DNA of 64,000 nucleotides. Origin: an uncultured delta proteobacterium (GTDB lineage: Bacteria > Desulfobacterota > Binatia > UBA9968). The notes beneath the pieces are model-generated. The model made no database searches and was not told where the DNA came from. It was given only the letters and a program-made list of their open reading frames with translations. Shown piece by piece: positions 11,110 through 33,811 of the stretch; position 1 is the stretch's first letter, and each line of letters opens with the position of its first letter. The position numbers and the translations under genes are program-made. The stretch is taken from assembly GCA_963737905.1 (NCBI GenBank), contig CAVTUQ010000012.1:32001-96000 (forward strand), in the 5' to 3' direction.

Positions 11110-12208
11110 ATGGAAGACCAAAGCCCAAAGTACGGTAAATTGTGGCACTGGCTCGATGAAAGAATCGGGCTGGAGGATATCGAATATCTCGCCAAGAAGA
11201 AAGAAGTGCCGGTGCACGGTCACACGTTTTGGTATTATTTCGGCGGGATGACGTTGTTTCTCTTTATGATTCAGGTTACCACCGGCATCCTTCTTTTGCT
11301 CTATTATCGACCCAGTGCCGGCGAGGCCTACGAGTCCATCCAGTTTCTGATGACGGAGGTACAGTTCGGCTGGCTGGTCAGATCGATTCACGCTTGGTCG
11401 GCTAATCTGATGGTCTTTGCCATGTTCATCCATCTCTTCAGTGCCCTGCTGGGCAAGGCCTATCGCGCACCGCGCGAATTGACCTGGCTCTCGGGTGGCG
11501 TACTGCTAGGCTTAACTCTCGCCTTCGGGTTTACCGGATATCTCTTGCCGTGGAATGAACTCTCTTTCTTTGCCACAAGAGTGGGTACTGAAATACCCGG
11601 TGTCATTCCGGTCATCGGATCCTTCCTTCGCCGGTTGCTGCGCGGTGGGGACGATGTGACCGGAGCAACGTTGACGCGTTTTTATGGCATTCATGTGGCG
11701 GTGCTGCCGGCGATTGTCACGGTCGTGCTGGGTCTGCATCTGTTCCTCGTGCAGAAACATGGTATGAGTACTCCGCCAGGCGAGGAACAGGAGGGCAAGG
11801 GCAGGCGCACGATGCCTTTCTTTCCAAACTTTTTCCTCCGCGATCTGGTCGGTTGGCTTTGTGCGCTCGGCGTACTTGCTGCTCTGGCCGCCTATTTCCC
11901 GGCAGAACTAGGTAAAAAAGCGGATCCATTTCACCCCGCGCCGATCGGGATCAAGCCGGAGTGGTATTTCATGGCCATGTTTCAAACCCTAAAACTCTTG
12001 CCCAGTTATATTCTAGGTATCGAGGGGGAGCTTCTCGGTGTTCTTGCATTCGGTGTGGTCGGCTTGGTGCTGATTCTCATACCCTTTCCTCGACCGACGT
12101 ACAGCCTCAGGGCAGCCGAGCCGCCTTCCTGCGGCTTTCGGCATCACGCTTATCTTGTACATGGTCTTGTTGACTTACCTCGGATATACCATGAGTCCGA
12201 CAAAATAA
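11110..12208 (+). CDS. Cytochrome b of a bc-type complex (frameshift ~12087)
   Basis: [32 protein letters not shown] and the Qo motif KPEWYF; corrected stop TAA at 12206-12208. Confidence 0.93.
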
Positions 12209-12260
12209 TCCGCATGGTTTTTGAAGTCGAAACGTTTCGCATATTGAAGAGAACCTCCAT

Positions 12261-13070
12261 ATGGCGCGATTTCGCATCATAGCGCTTAGCGATCGTTGTT
12301 CTAGTGGTCGTGGGAATCGGCTTTGCTGGCTATCGCAGTTACCAATACGTCGAGCATGATCCCCAATTTTGCGCCTCATGTCATTTGATGGCCACGGCAT
12401 GGACTACCTGGAAGCAAGGTCCTCACAACAAGCTCGATTGTCATGTTTGCCATCAACAGAATATTCAAGATCGCGTTCGTATTGTCTGGAGCTGGGCGAT
12501 TTCAGATATCAAAAAATGTTCCGCCGCATACCAGGCTCAACAGAAGGGTTTGCGAAGACTGTCATCTGAACGACAAGACGAATTGGCCGCAGATCAGTAA
12601 AACCGCCGGCCATGAGCTTCATGTCAAGAGAGCTAATTTAGAATGCCTGTCATGCCATTTGCCGTCTTTACATGCTGTGAAACCAACCACCAAAGAATGT
12701 GTTACATGTCACTCCAAGGCCACTGCCAATATCGGCGGGATGAAGGCATTCCATTGCACAACTTGCCATCAGTTTACGGCTAAGATCGGCACGGCCTAAA
12801 GCCCGAAGAGCGAGACATGTTGGGTTGTCACAGCGGAATGTCGTTAAAGGGAGAGACATTTCCGGCTCAAGCGCCAATGCGGTTCGGTTGTGCGACTGCC
12901 ATAAACCCCACAGCCGGCCCTTATTGACTTTCTCCGATTGTCTGGCGTGTCACCCGCAGATTACAGAAGATCGCCGCCATTTCGACCAAAAAGCGTTGAC
13001 GAGGTGTGTTAGTTGTCATAAACCCCATAGTTGGAAAGCTGTCACAGAATCCACAGTGAAAAAAAGTTAA
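12261..13070 (+). CDS. NapC/NirT-like membrane-anchored multiheme cytochrome c (~10 hemes; several frameshifts)
   Basis: N-terminal TM helix then FCASCHLM...W..GPH..LDCHVCH; further CEDCH, CLSCH, CVTCH, CTTCH, CLACH, CVSCH plus two indel-broken motifs. Confidence 0.8.
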
Positions 13071-15940: not shown

Positions 15941-15956
15941 TTGGAGATGAGGAAAA

Positions 15957-16133
15957 ATGTTTATGCCCGACTGGTTGTGGTTCATTGCGTTCTTCGCAGT
16001 ATACATCGTGTTGATGCGTTGGGTACTCCCGCGCCTGGGCGTGCCTACCTGAATGGCGAATTCGTGTGATGTCGAGTCTCGACGCAAAGGTGCCGGTAAC
16101 GGCCACGATCTTAAACGAAAGATAGAGAAATGA
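15957..16133 (+). CDS. Putative small membrane selenoprotein (58 aa, Sec at codon 32)
   Basis: MFMPDWLWFIAFFAVYIVLMRWVLPRLGVPT-U-MANSCDVESRRK...IEK*; RBS gagga; SECIS-like hairpin; stop overlaps the next ATG (ATGA). Confidence 0.68.
16053..16094 (+). promoter_or_regulatory. Bacterial SECIS-like hairpin
   Basis: gtcga-GTC-tcgac (16071-16083); loop G at +24 from UGA 16050-16052. Confidence 0.6.
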
Positions 16134-16612
16134 ACGACGTAAAATTCAAACCCATCGGGCTTGTGCATACGAAGGGCAGCGACGCCGAAGTCAGGGAAAA
16201 AGGGAACCTGGAGGGAGAACTGGAGATCTATCCTGAATTCGAGGAAGGTCTTCAAGGGATTGACGGCTATTCACATCTCTTTGTATTGGTCTACTTCGAC
16301 CGCCTCCGGCCGGAACAGATCGGCCCTTTACAGGTAAAGCCGCGCGGGCTCTTGAGAAGAGGTTTCAAATTGGAAGAGCTGCCGCTGCTTGGCGTTTTCG
16401 CTTTGGATTCTCCCACGCGGCCCAATCCCATCGGACTTTCGCTCGTGCGTCTCATCAAACGAGAAGGAAACCGGCTTTTCGTGCAGGGTTTGGACTTCTT
16501 CGACGGTACGCCGATTCTCGATATCAAAGGTTACCGGCCGCAATATCGTACCGACAGTTACGTCATGCCGGATTGGTTTCGCACTTTGGCCGACGACAAA
16601 GGTTACGTCTAA
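16130..16612 (+). CDS. tsaA: TrmO/TsaA/YaeB-like SAM-binding methyltransferase
   Basis: FKPIG, GLQGIDGYSHL, GVFALDSPTRPNPIGLS, GLDFFDGTPILDIK. Confidence 0.9.
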   Translation: MNDVKFKPIGLVHTKGSDAEVREKGNLEGELEIYPEFEEGLQGIDGYSHLFVLVYFDRLRPEQIGPLQVKPRGLLRRGFKLEELPLLGVFALDSPTRPNPIGLSLVRLIKREGNRLFVQGLDFFDGTPILDIKGYRPQYRTDSYVMPDWFRTLADDKGYV

Positions 16613-16786: not shown

Positions 16787-17754
16787 ATGTCTACAGAAGT
16801 TAGAACCGAAATATCACCGATCCAACGGAGACAAGAGCTGATAGAAAAATACTGGGCGGGGGATATGGCCCGCAAAGTCTATCTAGTGCGACATCAACGC
16901 AAGGCGATTTTGGCACACTGCCGGCGCATCGCCGTAATCGGCGCAAGCGGTGATCCCGATAGCGAGAGCTATGTCAGTATGGAAAAACTGTTAGGACTGG
17001 GCCTTGAGATCATCCCAATTTTTTCAGGCCGTGAAAGTTTTCTGGGGCTGCGCTGCTACTCTCGTTTGCGCGATGTGCCCGGCAAGATCGATATCGTGCA
17101 AGTTTATCCCGGCGGGCGGATAAATTTAGCTAGAGCTGGCTCAGGAGGCAGTCGACAAGGGTGTGTCCACCTTCTGGATTGAAAAGGGAATGGCGGCTTC
17201 CACGAGAGGTCGAGGACATCCTTTCCAACGGTAAAGTTCAGTTGGTGGAGTACGAGAGCTTGGAATCGGAGTATTTGAAACATACTCCCATGATCCCGAG
17301 CGCGGTGCCGGTCCGCAAGGAAAAGAAGACGGTGAAGGTCAAGGAGCGGATGACCAGAAATCCTACCGCGGTCACACCCGAGGAGGCTCTCAAGGATGCC
17401 GTATGCAAGATGGAGCGCGGCCATTTCCGCCATCTGCCGGTGGTCGATAACGATGGGAAATTGATCGGCATGCTTTCTGACCGCGATATCCGCCTGATTC
17501 GCCCCTCTCTGGCATTCGTCGGCAAGGAAGACGCCGGGGTTCAGCTCTGGTCCCTCGCCGTGCAGCAAGCTGCGGTCTTCGATCCGATTTCGGTGAAGCC
17601 GGAAACAACCCTCAAGGAAGCGGCTGAGCTGATGCTGCGCTGGCACGTGGGTGGTCTCCCGGTCGTTGATAATGAAGATAAACTCATTGGCATTATTACC
17701 TATACCGATTTGTTACGAGATTCTGTTGGATCTCAGCAAAGTGATCGTCCGTGA
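16787..17754 (+). CDS. CoA-binding (YccU-like) domain plus tandem CBS domain protein (frameshift ~17130)
   Basis: IAVIGAS...YSRLRDVPGKIDIVQVY, then RMTRNP...RHLPVVD...GMLSDRD...GGLPVVD. Confidence 0.75.
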
Positions 17755-19400: not shown

Positions 19401-19453
19401 ATGAGTTTATGGACCAGATCGTGCTCAAACCCACAAAAAGGAGGGGAGACGAA

Positions 19454-19918
19454 ATGAAAGGCATGAAAGTTTTGCTGTCTATTGGGGCGATAGCATTGTT
19501 GTTTGCGACGACCGATTCTTTTGCCCAGAGAGGACCAGGGATGATGTGGCGCGGCAGTGGTGGTTGGGGACCGGGATCTCCTTACAACAGGATGTATGAT
19601 CCCAAAACCGTCGAAACTGTGACTGGGGAAGTCGTCAGTATTTCCCAAATCACTCCTAACAAGGGAATGGGTGCCGGGGTTTACATGACTTTGAACACCG
19701 GCAAAGAAACTATCTCGGTCCATCTCGGTCCCAGCTGGTACCTGGAGAACCAGGACGTGAAAATCGAGGCCAAAGACAAGATTGAAGTGAAAGGCTCCAA
19801 GATCACTTTCAATGGCAAGCCGGCCATCATCGCCATGGAAGTGAAAAAAGGCGATGAGGTGTTCAAGCTGCGCGACGACGCGGGATTCCCGGTTTGGGCC
19901 GGTTGGCGCCGAGGCTAA
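19454..19918 (+). CDS. Secreted OB-fold-like protein (MamS/MamX-like domain)
   Basis: Signal peptide; YDPKTVETVTGEV, VHLGPSWY, LRDDAGFPVW. Confidence 0.65.
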   Translation: MKGMKVLLSIGAIALLFATTDSFAQRGPGMMWRGSGGWGPGSPYNRMYDPKTVETVTGEVVSISQITPNKGMGAGVYMTLNTGKETISVHLGPSWYLENQDVKIEAKDKIEVKGSKITFNGKPAIIAMEVKKGDEVFKLRDDAGFPVWAGWRRG

Positions 19919-33577: not shown

Positions 33578-33811
33578 ATGGCGAAAATCGTGATCGTTTA
33601 TAGTCAGCCCGGGTGAGGCCCGTGTGACAAGGAGAAAGAGTTTCTTTCTCAAAAGGGAATCGATTTTATTCACAAGAATGTCCGCGCCGACCCGGCGGCA
33701 CTGAAAGAATTGCTGGCGATGGGTTACCAAAGTACGCCCGTGACTATCATCGACGGCGAGGCGGTTGTTGGATTCGATCGGCAGAAAATCGACGAGCTAT
33801 TGGGTCTATAG
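33578..33811 (+). CDS. Selenocysteine-containing glutaredoxin/NrdH-like protein (UxxC)
   Basis: MAKIVIVYSQPG-U-GPCDKEKEFLSQKGI...YQSTPVTIIDGEAVVGFD...LGL*; in-frame TGA 33614-33616 at the redox Cys position; RBS ggaggt; SECIS hairpin. Confidence 0.9.
33617..33657 (+). promoter_or_regulatory. Bacterial SECIS hairpin
   Basis: gagaaaga-GTT-tctttctc (33632-33650), perfect 8-bp stem; loop G at +24 from the UGA. Confidence 0.75.

Follow-up and report, generated by a model that had tools for sequence, protein, structure and literature searches.

A widespread and apparently uncatalogued family of single-pass membrane micro-selenoproteins predicted from comparative sequence analysis

A short open reading frame directly upstream of trmO in a genome of the Binatia very probably encodes a member of a real selenoprotein family, a 56-residue single-pass membrane peptide in which an in-frame TGA would be read as selenocysteine (Sec). 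Comparison of homologues shows that the candidate SelB-type recoding signals, consisting of the TGA and a downstream hairpin with a G at +23/+24, are conserved, and that the predicted product has been under protein-level selection through the motif U/C-x4-C. The original prediction of a hidden, membrane-anchored U-x4-C selenoprotein without a named family is supported by the invariant TGA, the hairpin, the existence of Cys orthologues in other lineages and the lack of a match to any family model. The family is widespread, apparently uncatalogued and very probably made up of single-pass micro-selenoproteins. The term window is used below for the whole 64-kb stretch of DNA that was analysed.

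Results

The peptide gene and its predicted product

The features of the locus are as follows (window coordinates).

15943..15953, + strand: Shine-Dalgarno-like purine stretch, recognised from the sequence (GGAG at 15943-15946; GAGGA at 15949-15953, 9 nt 5' of the ATG at 15963)
15963..16133, + strand: predicted selenopeptide ORF, 56 aa, with one transmembrane (TM) helix, LPxLG[VI]xT, Sec30, x4, Cys35 and a variable basic tail
16050..16052, + strand: in-frame TGA, the inferred selenocysteine codon (TGA in 79/79 loci; TGC/TGT aligned in Cys loci)
16070..16084, + strand: bacterial SECIS-type hairpin (6-bp stem, loop GTC at 16076-16078, loop G at +24; covariation in homologues)
16130..16612, + strand: trmO/tsaA, single-domain AF0241 type, 160 aa (TIGR00104, PF01980, PDB 2nv4), overlapping the peptide stop by ATGA

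The elements first described for this locus were all found in the sequence: the ORF, its internal TGA, a tail of 26 codons (MANSC...KIEK) and a second TGA (16131-16133) that serves as the stop and overlaps the trmO ATG (16130). The N-terminal half is hydrophobic and ends in LPRLGVPT just before the internal TGA. The ORF had been assigned a start at 15957, giving 58 aa, which now appears the less likely of two alternatives. The ATG at 15963 (56 aa, Sec30, Cys35) is the likelier start because the start codon lies 29 codons 5' of the TGA in 77/79 homologous loci (read from the aligned loci), the codon matching 15957 is ACG in L010, the closest named homologue, and truncated database versions of the peptide are mostly 29 aa long. 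An AGGAG-type motif precedes the start in most homologues.

The hydropathy maximum of the peptide is 2.02 over 19 residues from residue 4, and an AlphaFold2 model contains a helix at residues 3-25 (pLDDT about 87), followed by a tail of low confidence. No K or R lies N-terminal to the helix and nine lie C-terminal to it, a distribution that suggests an N-out/C-in orientation, with Sec30 and Cys35 on the cytoplasmic side. A mixed alignment of Sec and Cys forms (n=50) shows no variation at P23, G26, T29, C/U30 and C35; across the 136 loci compared, the second Cys is missing in five. A divergent subgroup from Acidobacteriota (L159-L167, L169, L170) has the same TM segment and LPxLGVxT-TGA, with tails that begin A/G-V-P-x-P and a Cys that is shifted or absent. 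Tails range from 15 to 60 aa and end at any stop codon, with medians of 22-26 aa for Sec forms and 33 aa for Cys forms.

One contig from an RNA library covers 15969-16131 with a single difference, which is weak as evidence of expression since DNA can be present in such libraries. The sequencing runs contain small shares of the 64-kb stretch (4/22 examined), and run X1, which gives no trmO cover, is uninformative. Promoter and terminator scans at the locus gave results at chance level. Searches for a paralogue in the host's own genome and for homologues in viral contigs or plasmids found none.

Conservation of the TGA codon

A scan of species-representative genomes gave 155 relatives, with 79 loci returned; the titles of their source records are Binatia/Deltaproteobacteria, Acidobacteriota and, in a few cases, other groups. 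The aligned codon is TGA in all of these 79 loci (79 of the 155 relatives) and in 29/29 further loci beyond this first set. A profile search placed the family in 123/301 sampled genomes of the host's phylum, where 127/132 matches run across a single TGA and no match runs across TAA or TAG; the other five stop short, two with TGA at the site and three (L121-L123) not parsed, as was also the case for L126. A second sample, from the phylum of G011, was reached via a Blastocatellia record and hence taken as Acidobacteriota; here the family was found in 81/251 genomes. In this sample 72/82 matches span one TGA, the site codon of each of the nine short matches is TGA, and a doubtful match contains two TGA codons; among loci inspected for the codon itself it was TGA in 30/30 top and 12/13 weak matches (L168 not parsed). 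Two genomes are flagged as unpublished, and the conclusions are independent of both: G040 (L050) is counted only in the first-set tallies (79 loci, neighbours, selB, starts) and G372 is counted as selA-positive and gene-negative.

Homologues thus carry TGA or a Cys codon at the site, never TAA or TAG, and are conserved beyond it, which answers the check proposed with the original prediction. Past the TGA the frame is open for at least 15 codons in 136/136 loci, whereas the other two frames meet a stop inside the first 12 codons in 24/136 and 62/136 loci. The Cys at +5 is encoded by both of its codons (TGT 42, TGC 81).

Protein searches gave 515 and 769 relatives, with 265 distinct proteins among the matches listed. 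Parsing of 264 of these showed that 162 stop at the site, while the residue there is C in 76, W in 18 and a different one in eight, so that C is found in 76/102 listed database proteins running past the site; the 18 W forms are probably gene calls in which TGA was translated as W. Among 80 metagenome-contig loci selected for the Cys motif, the codon is TGC in 64 and TGT in 16, and true Cys orthologues carry T-C-M-S-G-x-C. One Cys protein is assigned to Planctomycetota by its source, and the ESM Atlas holds one unnamed cluster (score 0.89, 123 members) in which Planctomycetota are commonest, which serves as a lead only. Three Cys forms (P0002, P0014, P0122) have tails resembling SECIS-coded ones (SVESR, DAAFR, AVAAR) and possibly represent recent Sec-to-Cys changes; the 34 informative residues of the family are too few for ordering such changes.

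The main alternative to Sec insertion is that the TGA is a true stop, in which case the gene would specify a membrane peptide of only 29 aa, the stretch behind it would be re-initiated or left untranslated, and the hairpin would serve some other purpose. The 162 database proteins that end at the site would agree with this reading, as would the ATG that directly follows the TGA in 118/136 loci. Truncation in databases is, however, the usual effect of standard gene calling on selenoproteins, and TAA or TAG occurs at the site in none of the loci examined. Re-initiation, raised at the outset for the ATG at 16053, is disfavoured and fails to explain the conservation, because a codon other than ATG follows the TGA in 18/136 loci; moreover, Met also follows the internal Cys in Cys orthologues. 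With the loss of the hairpin in Cys forms and the association of the gene with selA, both documented below, we regard a true stop as highly improbable.

The predicted selenocysteine insertion at the TGA also agrees with published practice. In their available text, Haft and Gwadz (bioRxiv 10.1101/2022.07.06.499078) ask for at least 10 candidates, TGA in 100% of truncated members and similarity through the site with Cys orthologues of comparable length. The present family shows the corresponding candidate number, TGA in its parsed truncated members and similarity through the site.

The SECIS-type hairpin

A hairpin with its loop G at +24, of the same geometry as one at the glutaredoxin-like gene at 33614, had been proposed, and this was borne out, with G at +24 at both sites. 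The hairpin also agrees in geometry with the bSECIS criteria given in the available text of PMC13188914 (loop of 3-9 nt, stem of 4-16 bp, G in the first two loop positions, 16-37 nt from the UGA), having a 3-nt loop, a 6-bp stem and its G at +24. Taken alone, the window hairpin is weak. Its energy is -4.4 to -6.3 kcal/mol (-4.4 for the local fold), set against a bSECIS criterion of <= -7.5 kcal/mol, and the segment 16050-16110 folds no better than shuffled sequences (z = -0.18), which would suit a true stop; most of the distant homologues compared have lower energies.

The significance of the hairpin comes instead from the homologues. Across 76 distinct rows (L023, with a shifted hairpin, and L050 left out), 94.3% of cells are paired and 28 changes are double-sided, values reached by 0/500 shuffles, with the reservation that relatedness can inflate the result; slid controls are paired at 15-49%. 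A strict hairpin test, which is specific rather than sensitive as it misses the selD site of the host's own genome, was passed by 125/134 distinct TGA sites versus 7/69 Cys sites and 73/1341 ordinary TGA stops of that genome. Third codon positions within the stem are frozen (GTC for 81/89 Val, GAG for 90/91 Glu), and distant members keep the geometry with a different sequence.

The glutaredoxin-like gene itself (33578-33811, + strand) encodes a predicted 77-aa UxxC selenoprotein, with its TGA at 33614 and an 8-bp hairpin whose loop lies at +24; the product is related to YruB and Uxx-star models, with scores below every cut-off.

Selenocysteine machinery and distribution

Absence of selABC from the genome had been named as a finding that would speak against a selenoprotein, and on this point the evidence divides. 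The genes selA, selB and selD are present, adjacent on contig C29 (G000:C29:71024-75669; L004, L006, L008) and all above cut-off, and selD carries an internal TGA and is thus itself a TGA selenoprotein gene. A tRNA-Sec gene was not found in the 87.5%-complete assembly by Rfam (150/852 candidates scored), lax ARAGORN, a pattern scan or blastn with the tRNA-Sec loci of relatives, and this, too, would be compatible with a true stop. The lax ARAGORN run returned only one spurious palindrome, on C30. A tRNA-Sec gene was found in 4/5 relatives; in one of them (G613) it follows selD, a position at which the host's own genome has none.

The first 50 loci of the set of 79 come from 49 genomes, and selB was found in 45 of these. 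In Acidobacteriota the peptide gene is present in 77/194 selA-positive versus 4/57 selA-negative genomes (Fisher p 7e-7, overstated as kin are non-independent), and 77/81 gene-bearing genomes have selA. In the host's phylum, the association with selB discriminates little because selB is nearly universal there (279/301 genomes). The TGA form also occurs in 5/22 selB-negative genomes of this phylum (85-94% complete; counted by eye), which counts against the selenoprotein reading.

Relation to trmO

The protein encoded downstream of the peptide is a TrmO/TsaA protein of the AF0241 type. It scores above the TIGR00104 equivalog cut-off (107.3 versus 93.25 bits), matches PF01980 and PDB 2nv4 (E 1.4e-17), with AF0241 as its best solved relative, and has 160 aa versus 237-247 aa in two-domain forms. 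According to tblastn the gene is the sole copy in the assembly. Proteins of the TrmO family bind SAM.

The association with trmO is rare. The gene lies near the peptide in 4/78 first-set loci, 0/58 further Sec loci and 0/80 Cys loci (4/216 in all), counts that are to be read with the 1.5-kb flanks of the 58 further Sec loci and the shortness of many Cys contigs in mind. Where it does occur elsewhere, trmO starts about 30, 75 and 120 nt past the peptide stop, and in one locus it lies upstream. Seven close relatives have the peptide gene, six of which were parsed; the overlap with trmO is kept in L265 alone, from the same genus, and other parsed relatives include one in which trmO persists as a remnant and a second genome of the same genus, in which acetate kinase comes next. 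The suggestion that tsaA co-neighbours the peptide therefore found little beyond these 4/216 loci and L265.

In several loci that share the 26-residue tail, the peptide gene has an ATGA overlap with DUF2892, and the trmO overlap in the window may be a relic of such a DUF2892 junction. Decayed 5' remnants of trmO lie just past the peptide stop in L263 (detected by tblastn) and L015 (by eye), and a DUF2892-like remnant was seen by eye at the corresponding junction in L011; as far as can be read from sequence, these remnants show frequent gene turnover behind the peptide. Overall, trmO looks like a lineage-specific passenger, a local neighbour and no conserved partner, and the overlap looks incidental.

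It had been suggested that translation of trmO depends on selenium. In such a leader, Sec insertion would let ribosomes reach the second stop and re-initiate on the overlapping gene, here trmO. The ATGA overlap and the weak Shine-Dalgarno sequence of trmO in the window are in keeping with this idea, as are the retention of the overlap in L265 and the overlap with the next gene in 13/76 first-set loci (DUF2892 in five, acetate kinase in four) versus 107/1595 long ORFs of the host's own genome. Yet overlaps are no commoner in Sec forms (15/134) than in Cys forms (9/56) or at control stops in other frames (25/268), and many loci have no co-oriented next gene. The freedom in tail length and stop codon described above speaks against it as well, and the same motif is conserved in Cys orthologues, which are independent of selenium. 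A translationally coupled leader would be expected to have a conserved gene behind it at a constant overlap or distance, which is not seen at the selenopeptide loci. Selenium-sensing coupling to trmO thus found no favour in the comparison, and a leader of this kind is improbable. Hardly better can be said for a combined form, in which the gene would be a redox micro-selenoprotein and also a portable selenium gate at every junction where the second stop and the start of the following gene overlap (trmO in the window; elsewhere DUF2892, acetate kinase or a P-type ATPase); if true, this gate would be a bacterial selenium-sensing leader. A polar side effect on trmO in the lineage of the window is possible.

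The second proposal, that the peptide and TrmO form a module for metal(loid) binding or methylation, could appeal to SAM binding by TrmO and to the adjacency in the window, in L265 and in the four first-set loci. As trmO is absent from the 138 other loci and the protein, the only copy of the genome, passes the cut-off of a tRNA-methyltransferase equivalog, this module is scarcely credible.

Gene neighbourhood and proposed function

The commonest neighbour of the peptide is a YgaP-like DUF2892 gene, found at 65/216 loci (19/78 first-set, 9/58 further Sec, 37/80 Cys), in 42 of which it lies no more than 300 nt away and in the same orientation; neighbour screens with an 80-aa cut-off miss it. Ten genomes tested have 0-2 DUF2892 copies each; G011 and G016 each yielded a single copy, which adjoins the peptide. 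Conversely, the peptide was found at 0/5 DUF2892 loci of the host's phylum. Further neighbours within 2 kb (n=216, including related genomes and redundant metagenome contigs) are zf-HC2 anti-sigma/ECF sigma factors (34, mostly with Cys forms), DUF302 (27), thioredoxin (25), rhodanese or MBL-rhodanese (24), ArsR (17), HlyD (17), AcrB (16), TolC (10) and CoA-disulfide reductase-rhodanese (7); OsmC, SufS and TauE also recur. At least one tallied thiol or sulfur family is present at 117/216 loci and none at 99/216, where many contigs are short. In the window, an OsmC-like gene is the only nearby neighbour of this type. The ArsR, MBL-rhodanese and ZAS-type neighbours match NCBIfam sulfane-sulfur/thiol models below cut-off only.

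Two compact arrangements were seen repeatedly. In the first, associated with Cys forms (L187, L202-L206, L209, L210, L212, L215-L220 and others), thioredoxin, a stand-alone zf-HC2 anti-sigma factor of ~85 aa, the Cys peptide and DUF2892 are followed by an ECF sigma factor or a fusion of a cytochrome bd subunit I-like protein with cytochrome c. The second (L147-L149, L155, L157) consists of a SufS-like desulfurase, DUF2892, the selenopeptide and thioredoxin.

The handling of sulfane sulfur is a role of ArsR proteins of the BigR/SqrR type and of MBL-rhodanese fusions, and thiol oxidation is the signal sensed by ZAS anti-sigma factors. In E. coli, YgaP acts as a sulfurtransferase in the membrane (PMC4730233, available part), and DUF302 is located in sox clusters, its function being given as unknown in the available part of PMC5037610. 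From these neighbours, we lean towards a role of the peptide as a membrane-tethered selenol/thiol relay in a sulfane-sulfur/thiol-stress module. Its helix would anchor it in the inner membrane with Sec30 and Cys35 facing the cytoplasm, and this pair could cycle between the selenol/thiol and a selenylsulfide or persulfide-loaded state. The peptide might thereby act as a tethered relay of sulfur or electrons for a module of YgaP-like DUF2892, rhodanese, MBL-rhodanese, DUF302 and RND exporter, and either thioredoxin or the CoA-disulfide reductase-rhodanese could reset it. The lack of the second Cys in a few loci and in part of the divergent subgroup argues against a strict two-centre mechanism. 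Complex prediction for a Cys-form peptide and its adjacent DUF2892 protein gave a score of 0.02, from alignments of 17 rows only.

The same selenoprotein could instead bind a soft metal or metalloid (Cu, Hg, As, Zn) through U/C-x4-C and hand it to an RND or P-type exporter, or it could be a pump accessory resembling AcrZ, a single-TM accessory subunit. Such a role would fit the HlyD, AcrB and TolC genes counted above, the occurrence of P-type ATPase, multicopper oxidase, YtkA and ArsR/SmtB neighbours and the extra tail Cys of many Cys forms (CMSGGCC). The commonest neighbours are, however, sulfur- and thiol-handling families rather than metal chaperones, and the neighbouring P-type ATPase that was scanned is of the cation-ATPase type with no match to a heavy-metal domain. 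We therefore consider metal handling, the strongest competitor, rather unlikely, and the thiol relay remains the preferred reading.

Other features of the window

At 16787-17754 (+ strand), ORFs with a CoA-binding and a CBS domain are split, whereas L018 has a single 318-aa protein with both domains, which points to a frameshift near 17100-17180, either an assembly error or a pseudogene. Cytochrome b and multihaem cytochrome c ORFs at 11110-13070 (+ strand) look fragmented or end out of frame and suggest further indels in the assembly. A secreted-looking protein is encoded at 19409-19918 (+ strand), with a weak match to MamS (magnetosome; E 1.4e-5, far below cut-off).

Discussion

Novelty and significance

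The selenopeptide had no match to Pfam or to NCBIfam 20.0 (peptide searched against NCBIfam at E <= 1), and Pfam/NCBIfam searches with 27 members and with 50 alignment members returned only stray sub-threshold TM matches; the same NCBIfam library recognises the UxxC glutaredoxin of the window as related to Uxx-star models. Among solved structures, even the best match (E 0.12) was not meaningful. Candidate novel selenoproteins from groundwater genomes are reported to have been described by Deng et al. 2026. The available parts of the literature on bacterial selenoproteins, deep-Sep, DUF2892, DUF302 and YgaP do not describe the family, with the qualification that the BSepDB sequences (PMC13326102), Haft and Tolstoy 2025 and Deng et al. 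2026 could contain it. Three hypothetical families were reported with deep-Sep (PMC12013277, available part), and the NCBIfam models of these, as named in the available text of PMC13188914, do not match the peptide. On balance, the family is likely to be new to the literature.

Occurring in 41% of the genomes sampled from the host's phylum and in 32% of those from Acidobacteriota, it would be an unusually common omission; for one Acidobacteriota test genome, the available text on deep-Sep lists only three known selenoprotein genes (PMC12013277). Hundreds of 29-aa 'hypothetical proteins' would need correction. The family would also open the poorly understood DUF2892/DUF302/RND clusters to experiment, and its Sec and Cys forms would be a natural pair of a size that permits synthesis and assay.

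Comparison with known systems

With other bacterial selenoproteins that have an in-frame SECIS element, the family shares the in-frame TGA, a hairpin with an early-loop G 16-37 nt 3' of it, Cys orthologues and the Sec machinery. It differs from catalogued ones in that none is named with T-U-x4-C or a 56-aa single-pass architecture: among the 119 prokaryotic families in Table 1 of PMC13188914, set apart by their descriptions in the available text, none fits by name or motif. KCU-star/DUF466 (NF033934) and SaoC (NF040734) are likewise small selenoproteins overlooked through truncation, and DUF466 genes adjoin a transporter (bioRxiv 10.1101/2022.07.06.499078, available part); these proteins have a C-terminal CU, whereas the Sec of the peptide is internal, following the TM helix with a Cys five residues on, and no match to their models was seen. 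TsoB (NF045694, UxxxxU) has the same four-residue spacing but is a rhodanese/DsbD fusion, and MerT-like selenoproteins (PF02411, C/SxxU) share the membrane location and a thiol/selenol pair but belong to a transporter family; neither model matches the peptide.

The YgaP-like TM domain DUF2892 (PF11127) resembles the peptide in being a small membrane protein with a conserved Cys and an L-x-x-L-G end, but has two helices where the peptide has one. Homology between the two was considered and not accepted, with an hhalign probability of 36% over 18 columns, no Pfam match and the differing number of helices. Among eukaryotic proteins, SELENOK and SELENOS are small selenoproteins that cross the membrane once and carry their Sec in a disordered tail on the cytosolic side; their likeness to the peptide, judged from descriptions, is one of analogy only, their Sec being placed near the C-terminus.
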